Source of the DNA: Callorhinchus milii
Taxonomy: Eukaryota
DNA length: 64,000 nucleotides
NCBI RefSeq assembly: GCF_018977255.1
Contig: NW_024704742.1
Location: forward strand, 58,096,001 to 58,160,000
Direction: 5' to 3'
The notes beneath the pieces were generated by a model, which worked only from the letters and a program-made list of their open reading frames with translations, was not told where the DNA came from and made no database searches. A program made the position numbers and the translations under genes. This document shows, in pieces, positions 1,426-27,998 of the stretch (positions are counted from its first letter, which is position 1; every line of letters begins with the position of its first letter).

Positions 1426-1429
1426 TATA

Positions 1430-2975
1430 GGAACATAGGAACATAGGAATTAGGAGCAGGAGTATGCTATTTAGCCCCTTGAGCCTGCCCCGTCATTCAA
1501 TAAGATCATGGCTGATCTTCTAACCTAACTCCATCTGCCCGCCTTATCATCACTCCCACCCTCGCTCGCCTCCACTGGCTCCCCATCCCCCAGAGGATTG
1601 ATTTCAAGATACTCATCCTCACCTACAAGGCCATTCACGGCCTCGCTCCCTCCTACCTCTCCAACCTACTATCCCCCTACCTACCTGCCCGTACCCTCCG
1701 TTCCTCTGACTCCGGTCTGCTCCACATCCCCCGCCCCAATCGCCCTACCATCGGTGGTCGGGCCTTCAGTCTCTCAGCCCCGAGGCTCTGGAACTCTATC
1801 CCCCAGTGCCTTCGCCTTGCTTCCTCCCTCTCCTCCTTCAAGGCCGGTCTCAAAACCTTTCTCTTTGACCGAGCCTTCAGCTCCCCTCTCGCCTCTCTTT
1901 CCCCTTCTCGCTCCCTCCCATCCCTCCCCTCACCCTGACCATTTCCCCCTCCTCACTCCCTCCCCTCACCCTGACCATTTCCCCCTGCTCGGGTCATGAC
2001 CCAACTGTGCAGCGCCTTGGGACGTCCTCCTGACGTGAAAGGTGCTTTATAAATGGAATCTTGTTGTTGTTGTTGTTGTTATCCCCATATCCCTTAATCC
2101 TTTTATTCTTTAGAAACCTATCAATCTCAGTCTTGAATATGTTCAAGGATTGAGCAACTGCAGCCTTCTGTAGTGTTTCCTCAACTCTGTTGGAAAGGGC
2201 TGACCCTTAATCTTAAGACTGTGGCCCCTAGTTCTAGATTCTCCTACCAGGGAAACAGTCTCACACTGTCTACTCTGTCAAGCCCTATAAGAACCTTATA
2301 TGTTACTATAAGGTCACCCCTAATTCTTCTATATTCTAGAGAATATAGGCTAGTTTACTCAACCTATCCTCATAGGTCAACCCCCTCATCCCAGGAACTA
2401 ACCTAGTGAATTTATGCTGCACCCCCTCTAAGGCAAGTATGTCCTTTCTTAAATAAGGAGACCAAAACTGCACACAGTATTCTAGGCCCGGTCTCACCAA
2501 GGCCCTATACAGTTGCAGCAAGAATTCCCTGCTCTTGTATTCTAACCCTTTTGCAATAAATGCCAACATGCCATTAGCCTTCCAAGTTGCTTGCTGTACC
2601 TGCATATTAACTTTTTGTGACTGATGTACAAGGACACCCAAATCCCTCTGAACACGAACACTATCTAATCTTTCCCCTTCTAGAAAATAATCTGCTTTTC
2701 TGCTTTTACTACCTAGGTGAATAACTTCAAACTTCCCCACATTATATTCCATCTGCCATCTTCTTGCCCACTCACCTAGCCTATCTATAATCCCTTTGCA
2801 ATTTTTTTGTGTCATCCTTAGAGTTTACTCCACCCTATCTAACCTGCTAGTTACATCGTCAAAAACTCTAAAAGATTTGATAAGCATGACTTTCCTTTTG
2901 TAAAGCCATGTTGACTCTGCCTCATCATATTATGGTCTTCTAAGTACCATCTTCCCTACCACTGATGTCAGACTG
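1430..2975 (-). mobile_element. CR1 LINE 3' part (RT C-terminus + 3'UTR), interrupted by the L2 at 1549-2080
   Basis: ORF 2336-2815 (WQMEYNVGK...RDLGVLV...LEYCVQFWSP); (GTTCCTAT)n tail. Confidence 0.9.
1549..2080 (+). mobile_element. 5'-truncated L2 LINE insertion, left arm only
   Basis: LHWLP...FKIL C-terminal motif, (TTG)n tail, TTATC duplicated at 1544-1548 and 2079-2083. The empty site is visible in the right arm at ~27895. Confidence 0.88.
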
Positions 2976-2979
2976 AAAA

Positions 2980-5803
2980 ATATTGATTTCCTCGCCCTCA
3001 CCAAAACCTGGGTCACCCCAGACGACACCTTCCCACTAGTTGACCCTCCAGGTTACACTTTTCACCAAACCCCATGGCCTAATCATTGTGGCGGTGGTGT
3101 GGCGCTCATCTCCTGGTCCCCCCTAGGCCTTTCCCCTTTCTCCTCTGGAACCTTCCCCTCTTTTGAACACCTTACTTTCTACCACCCCTCCAGGTTTTCC
3201 TTCAAAATCCTCCTTCTTTACTGACCCCCCAAGCCTTCCCCACCTTCCTCTCGGACATCTCCACCCTCCTATCTTCCCTCTCCCTCTGCTCTGCACGCCT
3301 CCTAATCTTAGGCGACTTCAACCTCCACTTCACACCCTCTTGCTCTACCTCTGCTGACTTATCTTCCCTCCTCTCTTCCCTTAATCTCTTCATCCTCATC
3401 CACTCCCCAATACTGTGGCCACTCCTTTGACCTGGTGATCACCCGGGGCCTCACCGTCTCCGACATCACCATCATCGATAAAGCCATCTCGGACCACCAC
3501 TTCATCTCCTTCAGCACCTCCATATCCCTTCCCCTTTCTCAACCCTCCACCATCACATAATGTCCATGGAAAAAAGTTTCCTTCCTGTCCCTCTCCACTG
3601 CCCTGGAGTCATCTGAACTCCCACACCTCTGGCCCTCCCTGACCGATCTCCCCTCCTCACTCTTGTTTTTCCACAACTCCCTCTCCTCCATTCTGGACTC
3701 CCTTGACCACCTCACCTCCCAAACTGCCTCTTACTCCTGTAAATCCCTCTGGTACACCAGCCACCTCCATTTCTTCAAGGCACAAGTGCGAGCTGCTGAA
3801 CGCGCCTGGACCAAATCCAAACTATGGTTCATCAGCAGATTTGGCTTCACCATACCAAGACCTACCGCTGCGCTCTTTCCTCCACCAAATCCTCCTTCTA
3901 CTCCAAGGTTATCTTGGAGGCAAAGGACAACCCCAGGCTTCTCTTTTCCACCACAAACCGTCTCCTCCGTCCACCTTGCCACGCCTCGCCCATCCTCTCC
4001 TCAAACTCCAACTGTGAGGAGATGCTTGACTTCCTTGAATCCAAAATTGAGGGGATACATTCAGCCACCTCAGCCCCGTCCACCATCACCCCACATTACC
4101 TCTCCCTCATGACCAACACCCCACCCATCCCCCTATACTCCTTCGACCCTATCTCTACCTCCTCCCTCTCTGCGATTGTTCTCTAACTCAAACCCACCAC
4201 CTGCTCCCTCGATCCCATCCTCATCTCTCTCCTCATCTCCCAGCTCCACCTTCTGACCCCTCTACTGTCCAACGTCATCAACCTCTCCTTGTCCACCGGT
4301 TCAGTTCCCACCCCCCTAAAAACAGCCGTCATCACTCCCATCCAGAAAAAACCTTCCCTGGACCCATCCCTCCTCTCCAGCTACTGCCCCATCTCTAACC
4401 TCCCATTCCTCTCCAAGGTCCTGGAACGAGTTGTCGCGTCCCAGCTCTGCTCCTTTCTTTCTCGCCATTCCCTCTTTGAACCCCTCCATTCCGGCTTTTG
4501 CGCTGCCCATAGCACGGAAACAGCCCAGGTCAAAGTAACAATGACATTCTGAACATCTGAGATCAGAGCTCCCTCTGCCTCCTTGTCCTCCTCAACCTCT
4601 CTGCCACCTTCGACACTGTTGACCACTCCATCCTTATACACCTCCTCTCCTCTTGACTTAATCTTCGCGGACCTGCCCTTGCCTGTTTCGATTCCTATCT
4701 CTCTCACAGTCTCCACTTTGTTGCCTCTAACGGTTTCTCCTCCAGACCCCGCACTGTCATGTCTGGTGTCCCCCCAGGGCTCTGTCCTTGGCCCTCTCCT
4801 CTTTAATCTCTACATGCTCCCCCATGGTGACATCATCCGCAGACACGGGGTCAACTTCCATATCTTTCTGCCTCCACCCTCAACTCCAGGACCACTGCTG
4901 TCCTGACAGACTGTCTGTCGGACATCAAGTGCTGGATGAGGGCAAATTTCCTACAGTTGAATGTGAACAAGACTGAGGCCCTCCTGATTGGCTCACGCCA
5001 GCGCCTCAGCACTTCAGGCTCTGGCAGCATCAACCTCCATGGTTTCTCACTACAACTCACCAAGCCAGTCAGGAACCTAGGTTCAACCCTCAACTGTCTT
5101 TTCTTCCCCACATCCAAGCCATGATCCACTCTGCCTTCCCTCACCTCCGTAACATTGCCTGACTCTGCCACTACCTCACCCCTCTGGCCACTGAAACTCT
5201 TGTTCATGCCTTCATCACCTCCAGGCCCGACGATGCAAACGCCCTGCTTGTTGGCCTTCCCAACTCCTCCCTCCACAGGCTGCAGATAATCCAGATCTCT
5301 GCAGCCCGTGTCCTCTCCCGCACCAAACTCTGTGACCCCATCTCCCTCATCCTTACCCAACTCCACTGGCTCCCTACCCTTCAGAGGATTCAGTTCAAGG
5401 TCATGGTCCTCACCTACAAAGTTCTCCATGGCCTCACCCCACCCTACCTCTGCAACCTCCTAACCCCCTACCAACCCGCCTGCTCCCTCCGCTCAGCCGT
5501 CTCCAGCCTGCTCCACGTCCCCTGGCCCACCTGCCCCACCATTGGCGGGAGAGTTTTCAGTCACTCTGCCCCCAACCTCTGGAACTCCATCCCCGAATCA
5601 CTCTGCCTCTCCACCTCCTTAGCCTCCTTCAAGTCTCGCTTCAAAACCCTCCTCTTTCACCTTGTCATCAGCCACCCCCCTTCCCCTCCCCCCCGTTCTA
5701 CCCCCCTGACCCCATCTCGGGTCTGAAATGCTGTACACTGTCCAGCGCCTTGGGAATGTGAAAGGCGCAGTACAAATGTAATCTTGTTGTTGTTGTTGTT
5801 GTT
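2980..5803 (+). mobile_element. L2 LINE, decayed ORF2 (endonuclease + RT)
   Basis: Frameshifted motifs PISNLPFLSKVLE, HSTETA and [11 protein letters not shown]; (TTG)n tail. Confidence 0.92.
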
Positions 5804-7050
5804 ATCTATGGCTCCTCACCTTCTCTCTCCCACCCTTCTTAAATAGTGGTGTTACGTTTACGATCTTACAATCAATGGGAACCGTTCCAGAATCCAGAGA
5901 ATTTTGGAAGATCAAAAATGAGGTATCCACTATCTCAGCAGCCATTTAAAACCCTATGATGTAGGCCATCAGGTCCAGGAGATTTGTCATTTTTCAATTC
6001 CAACAGTTTCTCTCGTACTAATTCTTTACTGATGTTAATTTCCCGAAGTTGCTCACTAACATTAGCTTTTTGGATCCCCTCTATTTTTGGTAAGTTTTCC
6101 ATGTCTTCTAATGTGAAGACAGCAGCAAAGTATTTGTTTAATGCCATATCTTTGTCCCCCATTATAATTCCTCCTGTCTCTGCCTGTAATGGATTCACAT
6201 TCACGTTTGCTAGTCTCTTCCTCTTTATGTATTTGTAAAAACTCTTGCAGTCTGTCTTTATGTTCCTCACTAGTTTGCCCTCATAATCCATTTTCTCCCT
6301 CCTAATCATTTTCTTAGTTTTTCTTTGTTGGTCTCTGAAGCCCTCCCAATCCTCTGGTTTACTACTATTTTTGGCAGTACTATAGGTCTCTTTTAATTTT
6401 ATACTTTCCCTAAATGCCCTTGTTAGCCATGGTTGAACCGCTTTTCCCGTGATATTTTTATTCCTCAAGAGAATATGTAATCGCTGGGAATTATGTACTA
6501 TATCTTTAAAGATTTGCCATATCCTTTAATCTAATTCCCCAGTCTATTTTAGCTAAATCTTCTCTGATACCTGCAAAGTTGGCTCTATTTAAATTTAAGA
6601 CCTTTGCTTCAGACTTAACTACATCACTCTCTAACTTAATGTTAAATTCCATCATATTATGGATACTCTGCCCCAGAGGAGCCTTGACTTCCAGATTGCT
6701 CATTAACCATATATCCCCTTACCTGCCTGATTATCAGTTACTCTGTCCTGTCCCTCACTAATAACATAATCTATACGTTCCCTGAGCCTTAGGGGAGTAA
6801 CTGGCTCCAGGATGAAACTGTCGAGGAAGCTCCCCCTTTCCCTAATACTGCGCAATGTCTGCACCTCAGATTCCAGCTCAGCTACTCTGCTCAGCGGAGC
6901 TTCCTCAGTTGCAGACACTTGCTGTAGATGAAGTCGCCCGGGCTCAGGCTGCCCTCCATCAGCTCCCACATACCGCAGTCCTCGCACATCACCTGCCATG
7001 CCATCCTCCTCTCTCTCTCATTCTGGATTTTAGGGATTTTTAAAAAAAAT
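5804..7050 (-). mobile_element. CR1 LINE 5' part (ORF1 N-terminus, ORF2 pieces) with a 1.1-kb internal deletion
   Basis: KSPGPDGLH motif (ORF 5935-6468) and coiled-coil-like ORF1 N-terminus. Confidence 0.85.
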
Positions 7051-7067
7051 GTAAGTTTTTTTTAAAA

Positions 7068-7181
7068 GATGACGACCCTATCGCGCATATGGACAAATTA
7101 AAACAAGTGCTGCAGCCGCTGACCACTGCAGGCTTTAAAATAAATTTACGTAAAACCCAGAAAGGAAGATTCTAAGTGGAA
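7068..7181 (+). mobile_element. Short LTR-retroelement/retroviral RT fragment
   Basis: Translates to DDDPIAHMDKLKQVLQPLTTAGFKINLRKTQKGRF*VE, the pattern that follows YxDD in LTR-type RTs. Confidence 0.55.
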
Positions 7182-7240
7182 GATTCTACGTTTTCCAGGT
7201 TAAGTACGACGTCACGCTGATGTGCTTGTCGTTCTTTTAC

Positions 7241-7400
7241 AGCTCCCCCTCTCCACCCCGCTCTGGCCCAGCTCCGCCCTGCTCCGGCCCAGCTCCGACC
7301 CGCTCCGGCCCAGCTCCGACCCGCTCCGGCCCCGCTCCGGTCCCGCTCTGGCCCAGCCCCGCCCCGCTCTGGCCCAGCTCCGCCCCACTCTGGCACAGCT
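7241..7400. repeat. GC-rich 20-bp minisatellite (~8 units)
   Basis: Unit approximately GCTCTGGCCCAGCTCCGCCC. Confidence 0.9.
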
Positions 7401-7414
7401 CCATCCTCCGTCTC

Positions 7415-10400
7415 CTGTACAGCTGAAGCCTCATTTCTTCCCTTTGTATTCGAGGCCCTGTGAGATAACGGCTAACATTCCATTCGCCTTTTTGATCACT
7501 ATTTGCACCTGGGAACTAGTTTTTAGTGATATGTGGATATGGACATCCAAACCTCTTTGCTCCTCCACAGTTCTTAATTTCTCCCCATTAAGAAAATATT
7601 CTGCTTTATCTTTTTCTGGTCCATGGATGACCTCATATTTCTCTACATTGAACTCCATCTGCCACAGCTTTGCCCACTCACTTAATCTGTCCAAGTCCCT
7701 TTGTAACTTCCTACTCCCATCTACACAACTTACTGAGCCTCCTGCAAACTTGGGTATAAAACTTTCTATTCCTTCATCCAAGTCATTTATATGTATGGTG
7801 AATAGCTGGGGTCCCAGTACAGACCCCTGGGGGTCACCACTTGTCATGTCCCGCCAATCAGAGAACGTTTTCTTTATCCCTACTTTCTGTTTCCTGCCTC
7901 CCAAACAATTTCCAAGCCACGTCAAAAGGTTACCTCCGACTCCATGTGCTTCCATCTTCACTGATAATCTTTTGTGTGGAACCTTATCAAATGCCTTCTG
8001 AAAGTCCATATAAACAACATCAACAGACACTCTCTTAGCCACCATTTTAATGACCTCCTCAAAAAGTTTAACTAGATTAGTCAGACACGACCTACCCTTC
8101 ACAAACCCATGCTGACTCTCTTTGACTAGCTCATACCTGTCCAAGTGTTCAGTTACTCTGTTCCTGATGATGGATTCCAGTATTTTCCCTGCAACTGATA
8201 TTAATCTGACAGATCTATAGTTTCCTGGTTTCTCCCTCCCTCCCAGAGGATCAATTTCAAGATCCTCATCCTCACCTACAAGGCCATTCACGGCCTTGTT
8301 CCCTCCTACCTCTCTGACCTACTATCCCCTACCTACCTGCCCGTACCCTCCGTTCCTCTGGCTCCGGTCTGCTCCACATCCCCCGCCCCAACCGCCTTAC
8401 AATTGGTGGCCGGGCCTTCAGCCTCTCAGCCCCTACGCTCTGGAACTCTATCCCTCAGTGCCTTCGCCGCCTCCTCCCTTTCCTCCTTCAAGGCCGGTCT
8501 CAAGACCTTTCTCTTTGAATGAGCCTTCAGCTCCTCTCTCGACTCTCTACCCCCTCCTCGCTCCCTCCCTTCCCTCCCCTCACCCTGACCATTTCCCCCC
8601 TCCTCGCTCCCTCCCTTCCCTCCCCTCACCATTTCCCCCCCAATGCTCGGGTCCTGACCCAACTGTACAGTGCCTTGGGACGTCCTCCCGACGTGAAAGG
8701 CGCTCTATAAATGGAATCTTATTGTTGTTGTTGTAAAAATAAAGGAGTGACATTCACGATTTTTCAACCTTAAGGCACAATTCCCAAATCTAGTGAGCTT
8801 TGGAAAATTATGCTGAATGCATCAGCAATTTCCTCTCCTATTTCCTTTAACACCCTGGGGTGGAAACTATCAGGTCCTGGAGATTTGTCTATCTTGAGTC
8901 CCATTACTTTCTCCATTACCATTGTTTTATTTATATTAATTTTATTAAGCATTTCTCTTTGACGTATTTTTAGGTTCCCCTGAAGAGCTGATATTTTGTC
9001 CTCAACCTCTACTGTAAAAATGGTAACAAAGTATTTATTTAACAAGTCAGCCATTTCCTTAAATGGTAGCAGAGTACTTATTTAATAAGTCAGCCACTTC
9101 TATTATAGCCTCAACTCTAATGGAGCCACATTCCCCTTGACCTTTCACTTTCTTTTAATATATTTATTGATTAAAAGCATTTACTATTGGTTTTAATATC
9201 CCTTGCAAGTTTTTTTCATACTCCCTTTTTGCTCCTCTTATTACATTCTTTGTATCCATTTGTTGCCTTTTGTAATTCTCCCGGTCCTCTGCATTCCCAC
9301 TTTTTCTTGCATTTGAGTAAGCCTTTTCGTTTAGCTTGATACAGTTTTTAACTTCTTTTGTCCACCGTGGTTGCTTAACTATATGATTGGAGCTTTTGCA
9401 TTTTAGGGGTATGTATTTGTTCTGTATTGTATCAAATACTTTTTTGAATACTCCCATTGTTCATCTGCAGATTTACCCACTAACAGTTCAGCTCAGTTTA
9501 CTGTGGTCAATACATTTCTCATTCCATCGTAGTTTGCCTTCCTTAAATTTAAAACCTTGGTTTGGGATTCTCCCTTTTCCTTCTCAGACCCAATGTCAAT
9601 TCAATCATATTATGATCACTTTTTGCAAGATGTTCCTTTACTGTCAAATTGTTAACTAGTTCTGGCTCATTACTCATCACCAAATCCAGTATGGCTTGTT
9701 CCCTCCACTAAAGCATATTGCTCCAAAAAACTATGCTAAATACATTCTAGAAATGTGTTGCCTTTACTACCCGGAGGTGTCCTGCTTCTCCCAGTTATGT
9801 GAAAATTAAAATCTCTCATTATAACCACATTGCTTTTGCTACTTGCTTCCCTGATCTCCGATTTATACATTTCCCCACTACATCACAACTCTCTGGAAGT
9901 CTGTAGACTACTCCCAACAGAATTTTACCTCCTTTGCTGTTTCTTAATTCTAAACACAGTGTTTCCACTACCTGTTCGTCCTTATTGAAAGCTTTCCTTC
10001 CCTCTGCTGTAACAGTGTCTTTTATGAATATTGCTGCTCCACCTCCTTTCCCAATGACCCTGTCTTTTCTAAAGATCTTAGAGTCTGGAATATTTGCCTC
10101 TGTGCCCTGACGATGTTCTTCTCAAACTTTTTGACTTGTTATTTACACCTTTTGCCTTTTTCTTTCCTGAGTATTTACGTTATCTTTATCACTATTTGTA
10201 TTCTGACCGTTGCTCTCATCCTCGCTTTGCCTATATTTTGGTTTCCACCTGACCTGCCCCTCCACCTCCCCCCCCCCCCCCACCGCCCCTTACTGGTTTA
10301 AAGCTTTTTCTACTGTCATATTTGTCCATTTTGCTAGTACCTTGGTCCCAACCCTGTTCAGGTGCAGCCCATCCCAGCAGTACAGCTCATTCCTGTCCCA

Positions 10401-11530
10401 GTACTGGTGCCAGTGTCCCATGAAATGGAATCCCTCCTTCTCACACCACACTTTCAGCCACACATTAATTTCCCTGATCTAATTATCCCTATGCCAATTT
10501 GTACGTGGCTCAGGTAGCAATCCGGAGATTACTACCTTTGAGGTCCTGTTTTTTAATTTAATCCCTAGCTCTTTATACTCCCTTAGCAGGACCTCCTTCT
10601 TGCTCTTTCCTATATCATTAATTCCCGCATGGATAACAACTGTTTTTTTCCCCTCCTTTTCCAAGTTCCTTTCCAACTGCTTTGAACTATCCCTTACCCT
10701 GGCACCGAGAAGACAATACACTCTCCTGGACTCTTGATCTCGACTGCAGAGGATACCCTCGATCCCCTTAATTATTTCATCCCCTATAACTACAATGTTT
10801 CTATTCTGCTCCTCCCCTGCTTGCACTGCCTTCTGCTCTGTGGTGCTTTGTATTCAGTATATTCAAAATAGTATATATAAAAGTATTCAGAGCTCCTTCC
10901 CCACAGATTTCTCCCTCATCCAATTTAACAAATACATTGTACCTGTTGGAGAGGACCAGTGCCTCCTTCTCTGTCTCTACTAAGTAAATGCTACCCTGCT
11001 GGTTATCAATCTCACACTCCTCTTCCTTACCTCTCTATGTGGTGTGGCTATGTTCTGAAGTAAACTGTCCAAATATTCCTCCTCCTCCTTTATGTGTCGG
11101 AGTGTTCTCTAACACTTACTTCAGGTCAAAAATGCTGAGCCGGAGTCGACTCAAGACACGTGCACTTCTCACAGATGTGAGCATCAGGGACAGTCTTACT
11201 GTCCACAAATTCACACATACTGCAGCTTTAACACACTACCTGTGTTGCCACTATCCCTTTCTAGCTTCTACTCCACTTAACATTTAGGATTATTTATATA
11301 TATTTTTTAAATTTACGAGGTTTTACCTTTGCCATTTATTTGTTTTTAGTTATTTTCCCTTCAATCTATTTTACCCTTAACAATTTGAGGGTAAATAGGT
11401 AAACAAGTAATTTCACACCTTTTGCGCCCCATGTCTAGACCAAGTGAAACTCCCGTTTTCTACGCCTGACTTCACTTTCCGATCTCTCGCAGGCCCCAAA
11501 ATGGCTCCTGCACTGAGCTATCTCACTGGT
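7415..11530 (-). mobile_element. CR1 LINE (ORF1 esterase, ORF2 APE/RT), interrupted by the L2 at 8243-8733; left copy keeps the 5' end
   Basis: ORF1 motifs VVIGD/GARV/IHAGIND; RT motifs QHGFVKGRSCLTNL, DFQKAFDKVPH and PQGSVLGP. Confidence 0.88.
8243..8733 (+). mobile_element. 5'-truncated L2 LINE
   Basis: Very similar to 1549-2080; (TTG)n tail. Confidence 0.88.
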
Positions 11531-11967
11531 TCTGTTCCTCCTTTACAAGGACACACCCAAAAAAACAAAATAATAATAAATTGGTCATTTTCAATCCATA
11601 TGACTGGTTGTGGGACATTGCTGTGCGCAATTGGCTGCCGCGTTCGCTCACAAATATACAGTCAATTCACTTTACAGTGTGTTCTGTGAAGCGCTTTGGG
11701 ACATCCTCCCGACGTGAAAAGTGCTATATCAAATGCAAGGATTATTATTATTATTATCAAAACAAGTTCTCACCTGCACCTGGTTCCCACTCTCACCAAA
11801 TTCTTTAACAGAATTCTCACTCTATTCCACCTCACTCAGTTCCCTCCTCACGCTGCTGGGCTCTCTGCTCAAGGCGCATGAAGGGCGCTATATAAATGCA
11901 AGTTGCTGCTGTCGTATCTTTTTTAACACTAAAGTTTTTTTTGAATGAAAACAATTTAAATTCTTAC

Positions 11968-16844: not shown

Positions 16845-16959
16845 TTCCATGTAAACTTCAGACTGTCCATCACCTTGACACGTCCTCTGGATGTGAACAA
16901 TGATATATATTATACATGTGTGTATGTAAATTTGCATTGTAATTTACTATATGTATAGT

Positions 16960-17239: not shown

Positions 17240-17563
17240 TAATAATAATAATAATCCTTGCATTTGATATAGCGCTTTTCATGTCGGGAGGACGTCCCAA
17301 AGCGCTTCACAGAACACACTGTAAAGTGAATTGACTGTATATTTGTGGGCGAACGCGGCAGCCAATTGCGCACAGCAATGTCCCACAAACAGTCGTAAGT
17401 TGAAAATGACCAATTTATTATTGTTTTTGGTTTTGGAGGGATTATTATTAGGGCTCTGTGTGGGGTAAGGAAACTTGCCCAAGGTTTCGCCCTGTGCCTG
17501 GAATTGAACTCAGGTCTCTCACTTGCAAAGCGAGTGCTCTAACCACTGAGCTACAGGACTCCA
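17240..17563 (-). mobile_element. tRNA-headed SINE with L2-like 3' tail
   Basis: A box TAGCTCAGTGG, B box GAGTTCAATTCC, tail ...GCGCTATATCAAATGCAAGG(ATT)n. Confidence 0.88.
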
Positions 17564-18177
17564 TTTTGATACTATGCAATTACTGTGGGCTATAATTAGA
17601 AAGGACTTTGGAAGAAGCAGCCATAATACGGGTTCAAGGTCATCCTTTCTATGGAGAACAGTTCAACATTAACTCAACTTCAAAGGAAGTTTTAAAGAAT
17701 GAGGAGGGAATAAGTGGCTGCAATGGATCAGATTGCTGGAAGAACACAAGCAAAACAGAATTACTTCAAAAATACACAAATAAGATACACAAAAATACAC
17801 AATTTATAGTACATAATTCCCAGCGATCACATATTCCCTTGAGGAATAAAAATACCACTCTAACAGTGGTTCAATCATGGCTAACAAGAGCAATTAGGGA
17901 AAGCATAAAATTAAGAGACCTATAATACTGCCAAAAAGAGCAGTAAAACCGAGGATTGGGAGGGCTTCGGAGACCAACAAAAAAAAATCGAAGAAACTAA
18001 TTAGGAGGGAGAAAATGGATTATGAGGGCAAACTAGCGAGGAACATAAAGACAGACTGCAAGAGTTTTAGCATAGGTATAAATAGATCAGGGAAATTAAT
18101 GTGTGGCTGAAAGTGTGGTGTGAGAAATGTGGGAGTAGTCACAGACTTCCAGAGAGTTGTGATGTAGTGGGGAAATG

Positions 18178-21100
18178 TATACTGAATACAAAGCACCACA
18201 GAGCAGAAGGCAGTGCAAGCAGGGGAGGAGCAGAATAGAAACATTGTAGTTATAGGGGATGAAATAATTAAGGGGATCGAGGGTATCCTCTGCAGTCGAG
18301 ATCAAGAGTCCAGGAGAGTGTATTGTCTTCTCAGTGCCAGGGTAAGGGATAGTTCAAAGCAGTTGGAAAGGAACTTGGAAAAGGAGGGGAAAAAAACAGT
18401 TGTTATCCATGCGGGAATTAATGATATAGGAAAGAGCAAGAAGGAGGTCCTGCTAAGGGAGTATAAAGAGCTAGGGATTAAATTAAAAAACAGGACCTCA
18501 AAGGTAGTAATCTCCGGATTGCTACCTGAGCCACGTACAAATTGGCATAGGGATAATTAGATCAGGGAAATTAATGTGTGGCTGAAAGTGTGGTGTGAGA
18601 AGGAGGGATTCCATTTCATGGGACACTGGCACCAGTACTGGGACAGGAATGAGCTGTACTGCTGGGATGGGCTGCACCTGAACAGGGTTGGGACCAAGGT
18701 ACTAGCAAAATGGACAAATATGACAGTAGAAAAAGCTTTAAACCAGTAAGGGGAGGTGGGGGGGGAGGTGGAGGGGCAGGTCAGGTGGAAACCAAAATAT
18801 AGGCAAAGCGAGGATGAGAGCAACGGTCAGAATACAAATAGTGATAAAGATAACGTAAATACTCAGGAAAGAAAAAGGCAAAAGGTGTAAATAACAAGTC
18901 AAAAAGTTTGAGAAGAACATCGTCAGGGCACATAGGCAAATATTCCAGACTCTAAGATCTTTAGAAAAGACAGGGTCATTGGGAAAGGAGGTGGAGCAGC
19001 AATATTCATAAAAGACACTGTTACAGCAGAGGAAAGGAAAGCTTTCAATAAGGACGAACAGGTAGTGGAAACACTGTTTAGAATTAAGAAACAGCAAAGG
19101 AGGTAAAATTCTGTTGGGAGTAGTCTACAGACTTCCAGAGAGTTGTGATGTAGTGGGGAAATGTATAAATCGGAGATCAGGGAAGCAAGTAGCAAAAGCA
19201 ATGTGGTTATAATGAGAGATTTTAATTTTCACATAACTGGGAGAAGCAGGACACCTCCGGGTAGTAAAGGCAACACATTTCTAGAATGTATTCAGGATAG
19301 TTTTTTGGAGCAATATGCTTTAGTGGAGGGAACAAGCCATACTGGATTTGGTGATGAGTAATGAGCCAGAACTAGTTAACAATTTGACAGTAAAGGAACA
19401 TCTTGCAAAAAGTGATCATAATATGATTGAATTGACATTGGGTCTGAGAAGGAAAAGGGAGAATCCCAAACCAAGGTTTTAAATTTAAGGAAGGCAAACT
19501 GCGATGGGATGAGAAATGTATTGACCACAGTAAACTGAGCTGAACTGTTAGTGGGTAAATCTGCAGATGAACAATGGGAGTATTCAAAAAAGTATTTGAT
19601 GCAATACATAACAAATACATACCCCTAAAATGCAAAAGCTCCAATCATATAGTTAAGCAACCACGGTGGACAAAAGAAGTTAAAAACTGTATCAAGCTAA
19701 ACGAAAAGGCTTACTCAAATGCAAGAAAAAGTGGGAATGCAGAGGACCGGGAGAATTACAAAAGGCAACAAATGGATACAAAGAATGTAATAAGAGGAGC
19801 AAAAAGGGAGTATGAAAAAAAACTTGCAAGGGATATTAAAACCAATAGTAAATGCTTTTAATCAATAAATATATTAAAAGAAAGTGAAAGGTCAAGGGGA
19901 ATGTGGCTCCATTAGAGTTGAGACTATAATAGAAGTGGCTGACTTATTAAATAAGTACTCTGCTACCATTTAAGGAAATGGCTGACTTGTTAAATAAATA
20001 CTTTGTTACCATTTTTACAGTAGAGGTTGAGGACAAAATATCAGCTCTTCAGGGGAATCTAAAAATACGTCAAAGGGAAATGCTTAATAAAATTAATATA
20101 AATAAAACAATGGCAATGGAGAAAGTAATGGGACTCAAGATAGACAATTCTCCAGGACCTGATAGTTTCCACCCCAGGGTGTTAAAGGAAATAGGAGAGG
20201 AAATTGTTGATGCATTCAGCATAATTTTCCAAAGCTCACTAGATTTGGGAATTATGCCTTAAGGTTGAAAAATTGTGAATGTCACTCCTTTATTTTTACA
20301 ACAACAACAATAAGATTCCATTTATAGAGCGCCTTTCACGTCGGGAGGACGTCCCAACGCGCTGTACAGTTGGGTCAGGACCCGAGCATTGGGGGGAAAT
20401 GGTGAGGGGAGGGAAGGGAGGGAGCGAGGAGGGGGGAAATGGTCAGGGTGAGGGGAGGGAAGGGAGGGAGCGAGGAGGGGGTAGAGAGTCGAGAGAGGAG
20501 CTGAAGGCTCATTCAAAGAGAAAGGTCTTGAGACCGGCCTTGAAGGAGGAAAGGGAGGAGGCGGCGAAGGCACTGGGGGATAGAGTTCCAGAGCGTAGGG
20601 GCTGAGAGGCTGAAGGCCCGGCCACCGATAGTAGGGCGGTTGGGGCGGGGGACGTGGAGCAGACCGGAGCCAGAGGAACGGAGGGTACGGGCAGGTAGGT
20701 AGTGGGATAATAGGTCGGAGAGGTAGGAGGGAACAAGGCCGTGAATGGCCTTGTAGGTGAGAATGAGGATCTTGAAATTGATCCTCTGGGAGGGAGGGAG
20801 AAACCAGGAAACTATAGATCTGTCAGATTAATATCAGTTGCAGGGAAAATACTGGAATCCATCATCAGGAACAGAGTAACTGAACACTTGGACAGGTATG
20901 AGCTAGCCAAAGAGAGTCAGCATGGGTTTGTGAAGGGTAGGTCGTGTCTGACTAATCTAGTTAAACTTTTTGAGGAGGTCATTAAAATGGTGGCTAAGAG
21001 AGTGTCTGTTGATGTTGTTTATATGGACTTTCAGAAGGCATTTGATAAGGTTCCACACAAAAGATTATCAGTGAAGATGGAAGCACATGGAGTCGGAGGT

Positions 21101-21620
21101 AACCTTTTGACGTGGCTTGGAAATTGTTTGGGAGGCAGGAAACAGAAAGTAGGGATAAAGAAAACGTTCTCTGATTGGCGGGACATGACAAGTGGTGACT
21201 CCTAGGGATCTGTACTGGGACCCCAGCTATTCACCATACATATAAATGACTTGGATGAAGGAATAGAAAGTTTTATACCCAAGTTTGCAGGAGGCTCAGT
21301 AAGTTGTGTAGATGGGAGTAGGAAGTTACAAAGGGACTTGGACAGATTAAGTGAGTGGGCAAAGCTGTGGCAGATGGAGTTCAATGTAGAGAAATATGAG
21401 GTCATCCATGGACCAGAAAAAGATAAAGCAGAATATTTTCTTAATGGGGAGAAATTAAGAACTGTGGAGGAGCAAAGAGGTTTGGATGTCCATATCCACA
21501 TATCACTAAAAACTAGTTCCCAGGTGCAAATAGTGATCAAAAAGGCGAATGGAATGTTAGCCGTTATCTCACAGGGCCTCGAATACAAAGGGGAAGAAAT
21601 GAGGCTTCAGCTGTACAGGA
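18178..21620 (+). mobile_element. CR1 LINE (mirror of 7415-10861), with an L2 inserted at 20297-20790 (-)
   Basis: ORFs 18213, 19978, 20741 and 21251. Confidence 0.88.
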
Positions 21621-21630
21621 GACGGAGGAT

Positions 21631-21898
21631 GGAGCTGTGCCAGAGTGGGGCGGAGCTGGGCCAGAGCGGGGCGGGGCTGGGCCAGAGCAGGACTGGAGCT
21701 GGGCCAGAGCGGGGCGGAGCTGGGACAGAGCGGGTCGGAGCTGGGACAGAGCGGGGCGGAGCTGGGACAGAGCGGGGCGGAGCTGGGACAGAGCGGGGCG
21801 GAGCTGGGACAGAGCGGGGCGGAGCTGGGCCGGAGCGGGGCGGAGCTGGGACAGAGCGGGGCGGAGCTGGGACAGAGCAGGGCGGAGAGGCGGAGCTG
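21631..21898. repeat. GC-rich 20-bp minisatellite (~13 units)
   Basis: Unit approximately GGAGCTGGGACAGAGCGGGG; counterpart of 7241-7400. Confidence 0.9.
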
Positions 21899-21919
21899 TA
21901 AAAGAAATACAAGCAACAT

Positions 21920-24900
21920 CAGCAAGTGTCTGCAACTGAAGAAGCTCCGCTGAGCAGAGGAGAATCTGAGGTGCAGACATTGCGCAGTATTAGGGAAAGG
22001 GAGAGCTTCATGGACAGTTTCATCCAGGAGCCAGTCACTCCCCTAAGGCTCAGGGAACGTATAGATTATGTTATTAGTCAGGGACAGGACAGAGTAACTG
22101 ATAGTCAGGCAGGTAAGGGGATCCCAGAGAGAGAGGCGGAGAAGCCCCAGCCTTTAACCTTGGCCAACAAGTACGAGATACTTGCAACCTGTGTGGACAA
22201 GGAATCCTGTGAGGAGGGTGGGCAAACTGACTCCAACACCTCTATACAGGAGGCCACACAAGTGGGGAGAAATAGGCGGAATTTAATTGTAATTGGGGAC
22301 GAGACAGTCAGGAGGACAGACACACTTCTCTGCAGGCGCAACCAGGAGACACAATGGCTCTGTTGCCTTCCTGGGGCCAGGGTGAAGGAAGTGTCTCTTC
22401 AGGGCTGGAGAAGAATCTGAGGCAGGAGGAGGAAGATCTAATTGTGGTAATCCACATAGGCACCAATGACATAGGTAGTACTAGTAGGGACGACTTGAGG
22501 AGTGAGTTCAAGGAATTGGGAATGACATTAAAAAGGAGAACTTACAAGGAATAATATCGGGATTACTGCCTGAGCCATGTGCAAATTGGTACAGGCACAA
22601 ACAAATTAAAGAACTAAATGCGTGGCTGAAAGAGTGGTGCGGAGGGCAGAGGTTTCATTTTATGAGCCACTCGCACCAGTATTGGGAGGAAAGGGAACTA
22701 TTCCATAGAGATGGGCTCCACCTAAACTGGGCTGGGGTCAATGTCCTGGCAAAATGAATAAATAGGGAGGTAGGCAGAGCTTTAAACTACTAAGGGGGGT
22801 GGAGGGAAAGCTACAACTACAGTTAGATGTAAACCGGCAAAACTAAGAACGATGAAGGTGGTAGAGCAGATTAATGAGGGAGATAAACAGTGTGTCAAGG
22901 AGGGACAAGAAGCTCACAAAAGAAAATAGGACATTAGTGAGTAGGGGAAAAAGCAAGAAGTGGAAATTAAAGGCGCTATATCTGAATGCTCGAAGCATTC
23001 GTAATAGGATAGACAAATTAATGGCACAAATAGAAACAAACGGGTATGATCTAGTAGGCATTACTGTGACATGGTTACAGGGAGATCAAGGGTGGGAGCT
23101 AAATATTCCGGGGTATTCAGCATATAGGAAATATAGGCAATGTGGAAAACGAGGTGGGGGGCTTTGTCCTGCTAATAAAGGATGGGTGGAATCAGGAAAT
23201 ATCCTAGATCTTGTTTTGTGTAATGAAATAGGGTTAATGAGCAATCTGGAAGTCAAGGCTCCTCTGGGGCAGAGTGACTATAACATGATGGAATTTAGCA
23301 TCAAGTTAGAGAGCGATGTAGTTAAGTCTGAAGCAAAGGTCTTAAATTGAAATAGAGCCAACTTTTCAGATATGAGAGAAGATTTAGCTAAAATAGACTG
23401 GGGAATTAGATTAAAGGATATGACAGTAGACCAGCAATGGTGAATCTTTAAAGATATAGTACATAATTCCCAGCGATTGAGGAATAAAAATATCACGGGA
23501 AAAGTGGTTCAATCATGGCTAACAAGAGCAGTTAGGGAAAGTATAAAATTAAAAGAGACCTATAGTACTCCCAAAAATAGCAGTAAACCCGAGGATTGGG
23601 AGGGCTTCAGAGACCAACAAAGAAAAACTAAGAAAATGATTAGGAGGGAGAAAATGGATTATGAGGGCAAACTAGCGAGGAACATAAAGACAGACTGCAA
23701 GAGTTTTTACAAATACATAAAGATGAAGAGACTAGCAAACGTGAATGTGAATCCATTACAGGCAGAGACAGGAGGAATTATAATGGGGGACAAAGATATG
23801 GCATTAAACAAATACTTTGCTGCTGTCTTCACATTAGAAGACATGGAAAACTTACCAAAAATAGAGGGGATCCAAAAAGCTAATGTTAGTGAGCAACTTC
23901 GGGAAATTAACATCAGTAAAGAATTAGTACGAGAGAAACTGTTGGAATTGAAAAATGACAAATCCCCTGGACCTGATGGCCTACATCATAGGGTTTTAAA
24001 TGGCTGCTGAGATAGTGGATACCTCATTTTTGATCTTCCAAAATTCTCTGGATTCTGGAACGGTTCCCATTGATTGTAAGATCGTAAACGTAACACCACT
24101 ATTTAAGAAGGGTGGGAGAGAGAAGGTGAGGAGCCATAGATAACAACAACAACAACAACAAGATTACATTTGTACTGCGCCTTTCACATTCCCAAGGCGC
24201 TGGACAGTGTACAGCATTTCAGACCCAAGATGGGGTCAGGGGGGTAGAACGGGGGGGAGGGGAAGGGGGGTGGCTGATGACAAGGTGAAAGAGGAGGGTT
24301 TTGAAGCGAGACTTGAAGGAGGCTAAGGAGGTGGAGAGGAAGAGTGATGCGGGGATGGAGTTCCAGAGGTTGGGGGCAGAGTGACTGAAAACTCTCCCGC
24401 CAATGGTGGGGCAGGTGGGCCAGGGGACGTGGAGCAGGCTGGAGACGGCTGAGCGGAGGGAGCAGGCGGGTTGGTAGGGGGTTAGGAGGTTGCAGAGGTA
24501 GGGTGGGGTGAGGCCATGGAGAACTTTGTAGGTGAGGACCATGACCTTGAACTGAATCCTCTGAAGGGTAGGGAGCCAGTGGAGTTGGGTAAGGATGAGG
24601 GAGATGGGGTCACAGAGTTTGGTGCGGGAGAGGACATGGGCTGCAGAGATCTGGATTATCTGCAGCCTGTGGAGGGAGGAGTTGGGAAGGCCAACAAGCA
24701 GGGCGTTTGCATAGTCGGACCTGGAGGTGATGAAGGCATGAACAAGAGTTTCAGTGGCCTGAGGGGTGAGGTAGTGGCAGAGTCAGGCAATATTACGGAG
24801 GTGAGGGAAGGCAGAGTGGATCATGGCTTGGATGTGGGGAAGAAAAGACAGTTGAGGGTTGAACCTAGGTTCCTGACTGGCTTGGTGAGTTGTAGTGAGA

Positions 24901-27900
24901 AACCATGGAGGTTGATGCTGCCAGAGCCTGAAGTGCTGAGGCGCTGGCGTGAGCCAATCAGGAGGGCCTCAGTCTTGTTCACATTCAACTGTAGGAAATT
25001 TGCCCTCATCCAGGACTTGATGTCCGACAGACAGTCTGTCAGGACAGCAGTGGTCCTGGAGTTGAGGGTGGAGACAGAAAGATATGGAAGTTGACCCCGT
25101 GTCTGCGGATGATGTCACCATGGGGGAGCATGTAGAGATTAAAGAGGAGAGGGCCAAGGACAGAGCCCTGGGGGGACACCAGACATGACAGTGCGGGGTC
25201 TGGAGGAGAAACCGTTAGAGGCAACAAAGTGGAGACTGTGAGAGAGATAGGAATCGAAACAGGCAAGGGCAGGTCCGCGAAGATTAAGTCAAGAGGAGAG
25301 GAGGTGTATAAGGATGGAGTGGTCAACAGTGTCGAAGGTGGCAGAGAGGTTGAGGAGGACAAGGAGGCAGAGGGAGCTCTGATCTCAGATGTTCAGAATG
25401 TCATTGTTACTTTGACCCGGGCTGTTTCCGTGCTGTGGGCAGCGCAAAAGCCGGAATGGAGGGGTTCAAAGAGGGAATGGCGAGAAAGAAAGGAGCAGAG
25501 CTGGGACGCGACAACTCGTTCCAGGACCTTGGAGAGGAATGGGAGGTTAGAGATGGGGCAGTAGCTGGAGAGGAGGGATGGGTCCAGGGAAGGTTTTTTC
25601 TGGATGGGAGTGATGACGGCTGTTTTTAGGGGGGTGGGAACTGAACCGGTGGACAAGGAGAGGTTGATGACGTTGGACAGTAGAGGGGTCAGAAGGTGGA
25701 GCTGGGAGATGAGGAGAGAGATGAGGATGGGATCGAGGGAGCAGGTGGTGGGTTTGAGTTAGAGAACAATCGCAGAGAGGGAGGAGGTAGAGATAGGGTC
25801 GAAGGAGTATAGGGGGGATGGGTGGGGTGTTGGTCATGAGGGAGAGGTAATGTGGGGGTGATGGTGGACGGGGCTGAGGTGGCTGAATGTATCCCCTCAA
25901 TTTTGGATTCAAGGAAGTCCAGCATCTCCTCACAGTTGGAGTTTGAGGAGAGGATGGGCGAGGCGTGGGAAGGTGGACGGAGGAGACGGTTTGTGGTGGA
26001 AAAGAGAAGCCTGGGGTTGTCCTTTGCCTCCAAGATAACCTTGGAGTAGAAGGAGGATTTGGTGGAGGAAAGAGCGCAGCGGTAGGTCTTGGTATGGTGA
26101 AGCCAAATCTGCTGATGAACCATAGTTTGGATTTGGTCCAGGCGCGTTCAGCAGCTCGCACTTGTGCCTTGAAGAAATGGAGGTGGCTGGTGTACCAGAG
26201 GGATTTACAGGAGTAAGAGGCAGTTTGGGAGGTGAGGGGGTCAAGGGAGTCCAGAATGGAGGAGAGGGAGTTGTGGAAAAACAAGAGTGAGGAGGGGAGA
26301 TCGGTCAGGGAGGGCCAGAGGTGTGGGAGTTCAGATGACTCCAGGGCAGTGGAGAGGGACAGGAAGGAAACTTTTTTCCATGGACATTATGTGATGGTGG
26401 AGGGTTGAGAAAGGGGAAGGGATATGGAGGTGCTGAAGGAGATGAAGTGGTGGTCCGAGATGGCTTTATCGATGATGGTGATGTCGGAGACGGTGAGGCC
26501 CCGGGTGATCACCAGGTCAAAGAAGTGGCCACAGTATTGGGGAGTGGATGAGGATGAAGAGATTAAGGGAAGAGAGGAGGGAAGATAAGTCAGCAGAGGT
26601 AGAGCAAGAGGGTGTGAAGTGGAGGTTGAAGTCGCCTAAGATTAGGAGGCGTGCAGAGCAGAGGGAGAGGGAAGATAGGAGGGTGGAGATGTCCGAGAGG
26701 AAGGTGGGGAAGGCTTGGGGGGTCAGTAAAGAAGGAGGATTTTGAAGGAAAACCTGGAGGGGTGGTAGAAAGTAAGGTGTTAAAGGAGGGGAAGGTTCCA
26801 GAGGAGAAAGGGGAAAGGCCTAGGGGGGACCAGGAGATGAGCGCCACACCACCGCCACAATGATTAGGCCATGGGGTTTGGTGAAAAGTGTAACCTGGAG
26901 GGTCAACTAGTGGGAAGGTGTCGCCTGGGGTGACCCAGGTTTTGGTGAGGGCGAGGAAATCAATATTTTTCAGTCTGACATCAGTGGTAGGGAAGATGGT
27001 ACTTAGAAGACCATAATATGATGAGGCAGAGTCAACATGGCTTTACAAAAGGAAAGTCATGCTTATCAAATCTTTTAGAGTTTTTGACGATGTAACTAGC
27101 AGGTTAGATAGGGTGGAGTAAACTCTAAGGATGACACAAAAAAATTGCAAAGGGATTATAGATAGGCTAGGTGAGTGGGCAAGAAGATGGCAGATGGAAT
27201 ATAATGTGGGGAAGTTTGAAGTTATTCACCTAGGTAGTAAAAGCAGAAAAGCAGATTATTTTCTAGAAGGGGAAAGATTAGATAGTGTTAGTGTTCAGAG
27301 GGATTTGGGTGTCCTTGTACATCAGTCACAAAAAGTTAATATGCAGGTACAGCAAGCAACTAGGAAGGCTAATGGCATGTTGGCATTTATTGCAAAAGGG
27401 TTAGAATACAAGAGCAGGGAATTCTTGCTGCAACTGTATAGGGCCTTGGTGAGACTTCCTAGAATACTGTGTGCAGTTTTGGTCTCCTTATTTAAGAAAG
27501 GACATACTTGCCTTAGAGGGGGTGCAGCATAAATTCACTAGGTTAGTTCCTGGGATGAGGGGGTTGACCTATGAGGATAGGTTGAGTAAACTAGGCCTAT
27601 ATTCTCTAGAATATAGAAGAATTAGGGGTGATCTTATAGAAACATACAAGATTCTTATAGGGCTTGACAGAGTAAACAGTGTGTCCCTGGTAGGAGAATC
27701 TAGAACTAGGGGTCACAGTCTTAGGATTAAGGGTCAGTCTTTTCGAACAGAATTGAGGAAACACTTCTTCACTCAGAGGGTGGTGAATTTATGGAATTCT
27801 CTACCCCAGAAGGCTGTAGATGCTCAGTTCTTGAACATACTCAAGACTGAGATTGATAGGTTTCTAAAGGATAGAGGGATTAAGGGATATGGGGATAAGG

Positions 27901-27998
27901 CGGCAGATGGAGTTAGGTTAAAAGATCAGCCATGATCTTATTGAATGGTGGGGCAGGCTTGAAGGGCCGAATGGCCTACTCATGCTCCTAATTCCTAT
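21920..27998 (+). mobile_element. Near full-length decayed CR1 LINE split by the L2 at 24142-26968
   Basis: ORF1 esterase motifs (IVIGD, LPGA, IHIGTND), APE motif LYLNARSI, RT C-terminus, and a 3' end CTCCTAATTCCTAT. Confidence 0.88.
24142..26968 (-). mobile_element. L2 LINE (mirror of 2980-5803)
   Basis: Mirrored ORFs; (AAC)n tail at 24142. Confidence 0.92.

Follow-up and report, generated by a model that had tools for sequence, protein, structure and literature searches.

Results

Within the window, the 64,000-nucleotide stretch of the Callorhinchus milii genome analysed here, self-BLAST and global alignment delimit a large inverted repeat and reproduce the arm and spacer coordinates of a preliminary description of this DNA. 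The repeat is real, is present in two copies and consists of nested dead LINEs. Its main parts are as follows.

1443..10861, minus strand: left arm (original copy, as argued below), 9,419 bp, in the intron after the OCTN-like first coding exon; nested CR1-like elements on the minus strand, with antisense L2-like inserts
10862..18177: spacer between the arms, 7,316 bp, single-copy in contigs from other samples
18178..27998, plus strand: right arm (derived copy), 9,821 bp, ending precisely with the 3' tail of the inner CR1-like element
2321..6350: outer core, 99.38% identical to ~23595-27624 (25 substitutions in 4,027 columns)
7361..10861: inner core, 99.08% identical to ~18178-21672 (32 substitutions in 3,492 columns)

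Arm-to-arm identity is 98.43%, with 134 substitutions (86 of them transitions) and 21 indel events over 8,548 aligned columns. Identity above 99% extends over 7.5 kb in the two cores, around the 7.3-kb spacer; the longest perfect run is 420 bp, and the 401 columns adjoining the inner edge of the inner core hold one substitution. The earlier term palindrome fits the inverted arms yet overstates their uniformity, as a 1,105-bp gap and a ~294-bp gap interrupt the two cores and the arm edges are only 87-95% alike. With more than 90% identity over more than 0.6 kb on either side of unique DNA, the repeat has the form of a substrate for NAHR.

The spacer holds the start of an OCTN-like gene, and TRAPPC11 ends beyond the right arm.

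11968..12987, minus strand: first coding exon of the SLC22A4/5-like gene (CDS 12333-11968; acceptor AG 12989-12988; donor GT 11967-11966)
13898..13938, minus strand: upstream non-coding exon (donor GTAAGT; the RNA-like contig stops at 13938; putative join)
13823..14899, no strand assigned: likely promoter region with two deep haplotypes, from contigs of X1-X3
28899..28943, minus strand: last coding exon of TRAPPC11 with its stop (28899-28901); poly(A)-like signals at 28357 and 28689

The coding exon (12333-11968, minus strand) matches residues 1-122 of C. milii SLC22A4/5-like XP_007905056/57 at 100% identity, bearing out the gene assignment made earlier. The gene, whose RefSeq model is intact, is one of six OCTN-like paralogs in C. 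milii, which the earlier single-gene framing had missed. An RNA-like contig joins the non-coding exon (donor 13898) to the acceptor at 12987, and contig rows 13918 and 13932 share its depth, 60.2. The exon formerly called exon 1 is thus the first coding exon and does lie in the spacer, but it is at least the second exon of the gene. The left arm lies in the intron that follows it. RNA-like contigs come from X5, a presumed RNA run, taken as such since its contigs break at GT/AG sites, although none of the listed runs carrying this DNA is annotated as RNA. A further X5 contig, 11968-12219, was set aside as proof of the exon junction: its 5 differences indicate a collapse of paralogs. Later OCTN exons were not found within the window by tblastn and a motif scan, nor was a CpG island in 11800-17000. 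The right arm ends 901 bp from the TRAPPC11 stop, close to the ~900 bp first reported. Short-read contigs of three other fish (DNA runs X1, X2 and X3) cover the left arm and spacer; over the promoter region they diverge from the window by 2.5% (X1), 2.2% (X3) and 0.4% (X2), against a background of 0.3-0.4%.

The arms contain only broken LINE frames and no genes, and their description as LINE debris holds.

900..1427, minus strand: 3' end of CR1-A, the host CR1-like element, left over beyond the left-arm border and absent on the right; its translation matches the CR1-B C-terminus at 60%
10862..11290, minus strand: 5' part of CR1-A ORF1, by translation, continuing from the left arm into the spacer and absent on the right
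1428..7400, minus strand: inner CR1-like element CR1-B, inserted in CR1-A ORF2, with a 5' 21-bp tandem array and a 3' octamer tail
1543..2078, plus strand: L2-like 3' fragment, 536 bp, left arm only, with a 5-bp target duplication, TTATC
2926..5806, plus strand: L2-like insert in CR1-B, 2.9 kb; right copy ~24139-27020
8242..8734, plus strand: L2-like 3' fragment in CR1-A; right copy 20298-20790
6925..7222, minus strand: CR1-B 5' region, ~294 bp, retained in the left arm only and deleted on the right
22123..23227, plus strand: CR1-B ORF1 end and endonuclease, 1,105 bp, retained in the right arm only and deleted on the left

We take CR1-B to belong to the CR1 family from its motifs, and the arm ORF1 presumably carries esterase-like and zinc-finger-like motifs; the CR1 and L2 labels reflect such motifs and two groups among the compared pieces, rather than a reverse transcriptase tree or a library match. 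Of 12 arm pieces searched against Pfam, three carry RVT_1 (best E 2.6e-15), as expected of CR1-group remnants; 9 of 16 pieces, the OCTN exon among them, had no match. The RVT_1 fragments, the ORF1 with its presumed motifs and the ORF1-less antisense inserts resemble CR1-group LINEs as treated in part of PMC13343379, which describes chondrichthyan canonical CR1 (with an esterase ORF1) and L2. Here, by contrast, every frame is broken, and the whole arm, which contig depth puts at two copies, does not qualify as a mobile unit. The depths at locus level (6756, 9523 and 10000) indicate two arm copies only, bearing in mind that contig depth does not equal copy number. A multi-copy composite mobile element was accordingly rejected, the summed X1 depth reaching 19-29 at 6756 and 10000 where unique contigs have 9-12.6, a rough comparison.

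CR1-A ORF2 reads ...LQLYR / CR1-B / ALVRPHL... across 7400/1427 of the left arm, and ORF1 of the same element runs on into the spacer; CR1-A does not continue in the right flank. Because the host CR1-A continues past both left-arm ends, the left arm is shown, by sequence context, to be the original and the right arm the copy. The borders of the right arm carry further marks.

17791..17799, plus strand: AAAAATACA, left copy of a 9-bp target-duplication-like repeat, with a further copy at 17768
27999..28007, plus strand: AAAAATACA, right copy of the 9-bp repeat, directly after the CR1 tail
17805..18068, plus strand: CR1-B-family 5' remnant, 90% to left-arm 6238-6502 and 88% to right-arm 23455-23707; outgroup to both arms
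18067..18181, plus strand: two short pieces at the right inner junction, templated by right-arm 18542-18601 and 19115-19167

The 9-mer flanks 17800-27998 and occurs four times on the plus strand of the 64 kb. In 200,000 draws, a randomly chosen 9-mer landed within a randomly placed 25-bp window 33 times, a figure to be read with the knowledge that the repeat is A-rich and was spotted post hoc. The remnant at 17805-18068 has ~20 private sites. Its divergence from the left arm (23/263) is similar to that of the outer edge (33/334; p=0.67), and both exceed the middle (29/553; p=0.01). Unconverted islands differ from one another, at 9/203 (4.4%) vs 13/100 (13%; p=0.01). The inner-junction pieces are young, with 0 substitutions in ~96 bp (first 16 bp excluded), where the probability of 0 in 96 at 5.2% is 0.006. 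Two candidate marks were discarded: a shared 1-bp gap at left-arm 2249 does not mark common descent, the base being present in 3,059 of 4,081 of family depth and absent from about a quarter, and the excess of left- over right-private changes in 6238-6502 (6 vs 1) is not significant (p=0.125).

Substitutions crowd around gaps of more than 100 bp, declining from 7.68% at 0-100 bp to 4.22% at 101-250 and 1.56% at 251-400, then to 0.83% at 401-800, 0.95% at 801-1500 and 0.72% over 1500 bp. The densest 350-column window holds 33 substitutions, matched by 0 of 2,000 permutations. This gradient, rather than any polarised shared mutations, points to an old duplication that gene conversion has probably homogenised, and it suggests that the arms recombine with each other. 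A C-T haplotype at 9523/9530 in X2 was not accepted as proof of conversion, as a simple mutation path suffices and contigs drop variants.

Discussion

We propose a model where the right arm is probably a DNA-repair copy of the left arm, subsequently kept ~99% alike by conversion. The left arm came first, its host CR1-A extending beyond both arm ends. A separate, 5'-truncated CR1-B-family copy would have inserted, oppositely oriented, at a distance of 16 kb, as suggested by the 9-bp target duplication and by remnants at 17805-18068 and ~27600-27998, each 9-10% from the left copy. A break in this seed copy may have been repaired by invading the 3' end of the left CR1-B and copying inwards through the nested inserts. 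The arms gained independent deletions and an L2 insertion thereafter, with divergence high beside the gaps and low between them; the reciprocal deletions and the left-only insertion with its 5-bp target duplication imply that time has elapsed since the duplication. Arm-to-arm conversion would account for the gradient, and the right inner junction may have been remodelled recently (at most ~3% divergence) with templated inserts. As the inner edge lacks decay and the junction pieces are young, this explanation requires an extra, late event. Divergence within 100 bp of the middle deletion is ~8%, near the outer-edge level, so the whole arm may be of a single age.

A crossover in either core is predicted to invert the promoter and first exons, silencing one of the six paralogs. 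The anatomy supports the original proposal that such an event would leave the first exons facing away from the gene body. The proposed active toggling, or any function, finds no such support: the reference orientation is ancestral, because the host LINE is contiguous across both left-arm ends and the target-duplication copies are direct; the RefSeq gene is intact; and no inverted allele was seen among the short contigs, none of which spans an arm. On the repair model, the locus would lend itself to inverting the gene's first exons from time to time, without having evolved as a switch. A programmed invertible switch of the phase-variation type would need its own recombinase, short specific sites and a different product when flipped; neither a recombinase frame nor an alternative exon 2 lies in the window. 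Recurrent flipping, with an inverted silent allele at measurable frequency as an on/off polymorphism, would be a compatible consequence of the repair model, and we give it a small but appreciable chance. The 7.5 kb above 99% around a 7.3-kb spacer, with perfect runs to 420 bp, would favour it, as would five other paralogs that could buffer a null, and human inversion frequency rises with the ratio of inverted-repeat to inversion length, according to a portion of PMC6748972. Against this stand the ancestral reference orientation, the intact gene model, the spliced RNA-like contigs from the spacer and the shallowness of most of the spacer in three fish, although short contigs cannot reveal an inverted allele. 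Spacer segments 12308-13805 and 16201-16990 diverge by 0-0.5% in all three fish, and only 13823-14899 is deep; an old single-origin dimorphism would give deep divergence across the whole spacer, which none of the three DNA runs shows. The shallow segments argue against such a dimorphism in these fish, not against recurrent flipping. With six paralogs, a null of this gene is likely buffered. It is tempting to speculate that germ-line flipping with a segregating silent allele acts as a recombination-driven dosage dial, made from LINE debris, in a six-gene OCTN array with conversion homogenising its extracellular-loop exon, although we regard this as doubtful.

Could the right arm instead be a single 10-kb retrotransposition product, in which a read-through RNA extending to the CR1-B tail was inserted nearby in reverse, with conversion following? 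In favour of this, the right arm has no host 3' remainder and stops precisely where the CR1 3' tail does; it is truncated at its 5' end, and a 9-bp direct repeat brackets it. The left arm reads in the sense direction of the OCTN pre-mRNA, and divergence beside the middle gap (~8%) nears that of the outer edge. Yet a landing only 7-16 kb from the source in a ~1 Gb genome is improbable on general grounds, a template jump would be needed for the 17805-18068 piece, and the unconverted islands are of unlike age (4.4% vs 13%, p=0.01). We consider this route unlikely. Quite unlikely, too, is a single recent copying event whose template was an allele of the left locus that had diverged deeply; the cores would then be alike through the youth of the event, and the diverged patches would be old allelic indel haplotypes instead of traces of conversion. 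The inner junction is young (0/96), core divergence of 0.76% is merely ~2x the allelic background of 0.3-0.4%, deep allelic patches exist at the locus (promoter, 2.2-2.5%), and substitution density is reportedly raised near indels between alleles. However, this reading requires allelic divergence of 5-8%, 15-20x background, plus reciprocal deletions of 1,105, 294, 17, 12 and 9 bp; a weak further point is that the right-type contig at 6756 is roughly single-copy in X2 and X3, not double. The missing left-type contig there in X2 and X3 is a gap in coverage and proves nothing.

In contigs from the three other fish, right-arm letters occur at 4 of 4 listed locus-depth arm sites, the left inner junction (10861/10862) is bridged among listed contigs in two of three runs, and depth is about double on 3 of 5 listed inner-core contigs (9386-10208). 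In each of the three DNA runs, the contig at 9875-10208 combines left states at 9954 and 10100 with the right letter at 10000, that of X3 at about single-copy depth; some arm differences may therefore be private or assembly errors. Such errors, and the confinement of these contigs to the left arm and spacer, would fit one arm having been duplicated or cross-polished by the assembler, but this is very unlikely given indels with biological signatures, transition-rich substitutions (86/134) and right-arm letters and ~double depth in unrelated contigs. The repeat is not an assembly fold-back: the arms are distinguished by insertions that carry target duplications, and other samples bear right-arm letters.

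The locus and its proposed origin have parallels elsewhere. In the relevant part of PMC7507428, F8 int1h-1 lies in intron 1 and int1h-2 outside the gene, and a duplication is described that has microhomology/template switching at one end and homology at the other, as we propose for the C. milii arms. At F8 one repeat lies in an early intron and its inverted partner upstream of the promoter, so that NAHR would sever the first exon(s), and the C. milii layout is probably of this kind; here the left arm follows the first coding exon, and the RNA-like contig reaches 13938 in the spacer. In the same portion of PMC7507428, int1h-2 is ~126 kb off and the F8 inversion is a demonstrated disease allele of a single-copy gene, whereas the C. 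milii locus has ~9-kb LINE-debris arms around 7.3 kb and five paralogs, and is known from the reference orientation alone. Human inversions flanked by inverted repeats of 654 bp-24.2 kb at >90% identity are mostly recurrent, and gene disruption or first-exon exchange is known among those arising by NAHR, on the sections of PMC6748972 and PMC3961182 used here. Our repeat falls within the size and identity range of recurrent InvFEST inversions such as HsInv0030 (CTRB1/CTRB2) and HsInv0340 (LINC00395) in those sections; these differ in being genotyped polymorphisms, and HsInv0030 swaps a first exon and promoter between two genes, whereas the far side here offers only the TRAPPC11 3' end. Primate X palindromes, including P24 (FLNA/EMD), likewise have long ~99% arms and instability of spacer and inner edge, as well as arm conversion, which the C. 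milii arms probably share, in the passages drawn on from PMC8327919 (see also PMC8981503); there, P24 has whole genes in its spacer and X-palindrome arms mostly hold selected genes, unlike the gene-free C. milii arms. Measured against the filter of Jackson et al. 2021 (arms >8 kb, identity >99%, as given in part of PMC8327919), both C. milii arms are long enough, while overall identity (98.43%) falls short and the 4.0- and 3.5-kb cores alone pass.

The layout is already known from human genes, and the C. milii case is a further example. It illustrates in well-resolved detail that scattered LINE copies can give rise to a long inverted duplication whose age conversion then masks, and it offers a concrete site for measuring NAHR inversion rates outside mammals. 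An inverted allele at real frequency would be a recurrent, tolerated knock-out, of greater importance. The elephant shark genome is the slowest-evolving among vertebrates, as stated in an excerpt of PMC3964593.

Literature searches gave nothing relevant, among the papers listed, on OCTN/SLC22 in elephant shark or cartilaginous fish, and no precedent for exon-limited concerted evolution of an OCTN extracellular loop. The evidence for such evolution among the six old OCTN paralogs is stronger than that for a switch. The loop-coding part of the first coding exon is homogenised across all six.

Results

The arms, spacer and coding features lie in the window as follows.

1443-10861, left arm
10862-18177, spacer (7,316 bp)
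18178-27998, right arm, inverted relative to the left
12333-11968, minus strand, first coding exon of the SLC22A4/5-like (OCTN-like) gene
12334-12987 and 13898-13938, minus strand, 5' UTR
13823-14899, likely promoter
28899-28901, TRAPPC11 stop codon

Self-BLAST of the window gave two long minus-strand matches (23225-27898 with 6715-2079; 18178-21782 with 10861-7251) and extra short ones in the outer and middle arm parts. When 1443-10861 was aligned globally to reverse-complemented 18178-27998, arm identity came to 98.43% (8,548 aligned columns, 134 substitutions, 86 of them transitions, and 21 indel events). The two methods agree, upholding the arm coordinates and spacer length of the preliminary description; its ~900 bp from arm to TRAPPC11 stop codon is also right. 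TRAPPC11 gives Pfam matches to Foie-gras and Gryzun-like domains on three exon frames. The arms are non-uniform: near-identity holds in two cores (left-arm 2321-6350, 4,027 columns at 99.38%; 7361-10861, 3,492 columns at 99.08%) but not in the outer 334 columns (90%), the middle 553 (95%) or the large one-sided gaps, with 536 bp and ~294 bp present only on the left and 1,105 bp only on the right.

Five runs from two studies contain all or some of the spacer. Three of the four DNA-like runs (X1, X2 and X3, from three other fish) and the single RNA-like run were compared with 1-18177, that is, left arm and spacer only; all consist of contigs too short to span an arm, and results come from 40 of 93 letter rows and 32 of 251,085 pieces. 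Among the pieces listed, the 10861/10862 junction is bridged without differences in X1 and X3. The right-arm letter occurs in the DNA runs at all four arm sites of locus-level depth among the 12 arm rows listed (6756, 9523, 9530 and 10000). Half-depth arms had been suggested as the mark of an assembly artefact. Among the contigs listed, inner-core depth is 18.8 in X1, 14.2 and 11 in X2, and 16.6 and 10.7 in X3, against 9-12.6, 5.8-7.9 and 5.6-10.8 for unique contigs in the same order, so that three of five are near double and none is halved; because contig depth is not copy number, this is a hint. In each of the three fish, contigs at 9875-10208 combine left-arm with right-arm states, and part of the reference's arm differences may for this reason be private or errors. 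At 6756 (region 6713-6800), X2 and X3 give the right-arm letter only, at about single-copy depth, among the rows listed; the deletion form of the left arm may vary among fish there, or it simply went uncounted.

The first coding exon matches residues 1-122 of C. milii XP_007905056.1/57.1 at 100%. The 139-Mb contig that carries this gene has five more C. milii genes with 84-91% matches to the exon. From the common contig and near-consecutive accessions, we infer a tandem array of six OCTN-like genes. No later OCTN exon was found in the 64-kb window, and the RefSeq model would place exon 2 to its left. In the RNA-like run, a locus-specific contig at 12480-12987 carries 40 further letters, and one of equal depth (60.2) includes positions 13918 and 13932 and stops at 13938. 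Because of this equal-depth contig, and of AG and GTAAGT at the two ends of the putative intron between 12987 and 13898, we infer an upstream non-coding exon; what had been called exon 1 stands as the first coding exon, apparently preceded by another. RNA depth is almost none across 13939-14544, and transcription probably starts near 13.94 kb. The 5' UTR, of at least 695 nt, contains 7 upstream ATGs in reference letters. An inverted SINE-like pair in the spacer (11562-11757 and 17239-17434; 196 bp, 94%, by self-BLAST) has the exons between its members.

The likely promoter holds two deep haplotypes. In the longest contigs listed there are 19 substitutions in 770 bp in X1 (2.5%) and 13 in 587 in X3 (2.2%; p = 6e-8 and 1e-5), and 3 in 748 in X2 (0.4%), against a background of 0.3-0.4%. 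The deep haplotype could be an old balanced one or a paralog-derived tract.

Loop residues 41-120, encoded by the 3' two-thirds of the exon (11968-12213, minus strand), differ little from one C. milii paralog to another: identity among the six in 20-residue windows is 85-100%, down to 65% at the exon end, against 53-72% over residues 123-515. The paralogs group together in a 26-row tree of this loop (97/95) and scatter over shark orthologous groups in a 26-row tree of the remaining protein, where their monophyly is rejected (p-AU 1.5e-4, 16-row test). DNA contigs are about five-fold deep over the loop-coding part (55 against 9-12 in X1), and loop homogenisation is much weaker among shark paralogs. 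Exon-limited gene conversion among the six is likely, judged at the protein level with one isoform per gene. A search of CC-licensed PMC and bioRxiv found no paper on either the loop homogenisation or the promoter haplotypes. Three UniRef entries (A0A4W3GC21, 97% to the window exon, A0A4W3GPR7 and A0A4W3GAH7) are C. milii models of the first coding exon only (114-125 aa), which may be orphan copies of the exon, allelic forms or pieces left by the assembly.

The array adjoining TRAPPC11 forms a clade separate from bird SLC22A4/5-type genes and a second shark locus. Because human 4q35 (TRAPPC11, IRF2, ACSL1, PDLIM3) and 5q31 (SLC22A4/5, IRF1, ACSL6, PDLIM4) are paralogous regions, the array may represent an ohnolog that mammals no longer have, and SLC22A4/A5 names do not denote orthology.

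Discussion

The arms are nested LINE remnants with Pfam RVT_1 matches, whose elements we take from their motifs to be CR1-like and L2-like. These labels agree with a published account of chondrichthyan elements (PMC13343379). In the left arm, an element of another family (CR1-B; 46-60% identical in protein) splits ORF2 of a host CR1-like element (CR1-A). On translation, CR1-A is back in frame at 1427 and continues to ~900, and its ORF1 extends into the spacer to ~11290. As the right arm has neither extension, it is the copy. It ends exactly with the CR1-B tail, then AAAAATACA; a second AAAAATACA lies at 17791-17799, shortly before a 264-bp CR1-B-family piece (17805-18068) that is an outgroup to both arms (~20 private sites; 23/263 from the left). 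Two short arm-internal copies follow before the right arm, in the same orientation and with 0 substitutions in ~96 bp. That the right arm is a 10-kb retrotransposed read-through copy seems unlikely. The reference carries the ancestral orientation, because neither the host element nor the target duplication has lost its original register. Antisense L2-like inserts at 20298 and 24139 (with mirror copies) are two independent events, each in a different CR1-like family and both at most ~10 codons from the motif VTPLF..GGREK.

With rising distance from gaps of >100 bp, arm substitutions run 38/495 (0-100 bp), 17/403 (101-250), 7/450 (251-400), 10/1198 (401-800), 20/2098 (801-1500) and 27/3762 (>1500), leaving out the tandem repeats at 7216-7360 and a spurious island of 4 columns; their clustering exceeds 2,000 of 2,000 permutations. 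Both arms carry independent deletions, and the left an insertion with a 5-bp target duplication, all of which need time; a young copy taken from a deep allele also seems unlikely. The simplest reading is an old duplication whose gap-free stretches were homogenised by conversion.

A seed role for a separate CR1-B copy fits the distances to the left copy: the 17805-18068 remnant lies as far from it as the outer edge does (p=0.67), and each is farther than the middle (p=0.01). In the islands the contrast is 13/100 against 9/203 for the middle (p=0.01). We propose a model where this CR1-B copy primes copying of the arm by homology and conversion then homogenises the gap-free stretches. The inner edge lies off the gradient, and because it shows 1 substitution in 401 columns and the junction pieces are young (upper bound ~3%), a later repair event must have reset it. 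A study of primate palindromes reports unstable inner arms and spacers (PMC8327919), to which the reset inner edge of the right arm may be likened.

From what is established of NAHR, crossing-over within either core would invert the first exons. In humans, 24 inversions with inverted repeats of >90% identity and 654 bp-24.2 kb were mostly recurrent, and their frequency climbs with the ratio of repeat to inversion length (PMC6748972, PMC3961182). The C. milii locus appears to match F8 Inv1 (PMC7507428) in layout. Since the ratio here exceeds 1, occasional inversion is likely as a mutation. The gene is modelled whole in RefSeq, and in three fish the bulk of the spacer differs from the window by 0-0.5%, shallow divergence that argues against an old dimorphism among them and is still compatible with recurrence. 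The locus had been pictured as a potential on/off cassette. An inversion substrate around the gene start it is, but the window contains neither a recombinase nor an alternative gene body beyond the spacer, so flipping would do no more than remove one of the six paralogs. A recurrent on/off allele segregating within a converting array is improbable, and a selected or regulated switch very improbable. The type is known, an inversion-prone inverted duplication around a gene start, here with an unusually readable origin.

Elsewhere, the window carries three simple-sequence arrays.

55950-56520, AC/AG-rich
59946-60311, C-rich 14-15-mer
61918-63680, 1.7-kb AG/AT-rich
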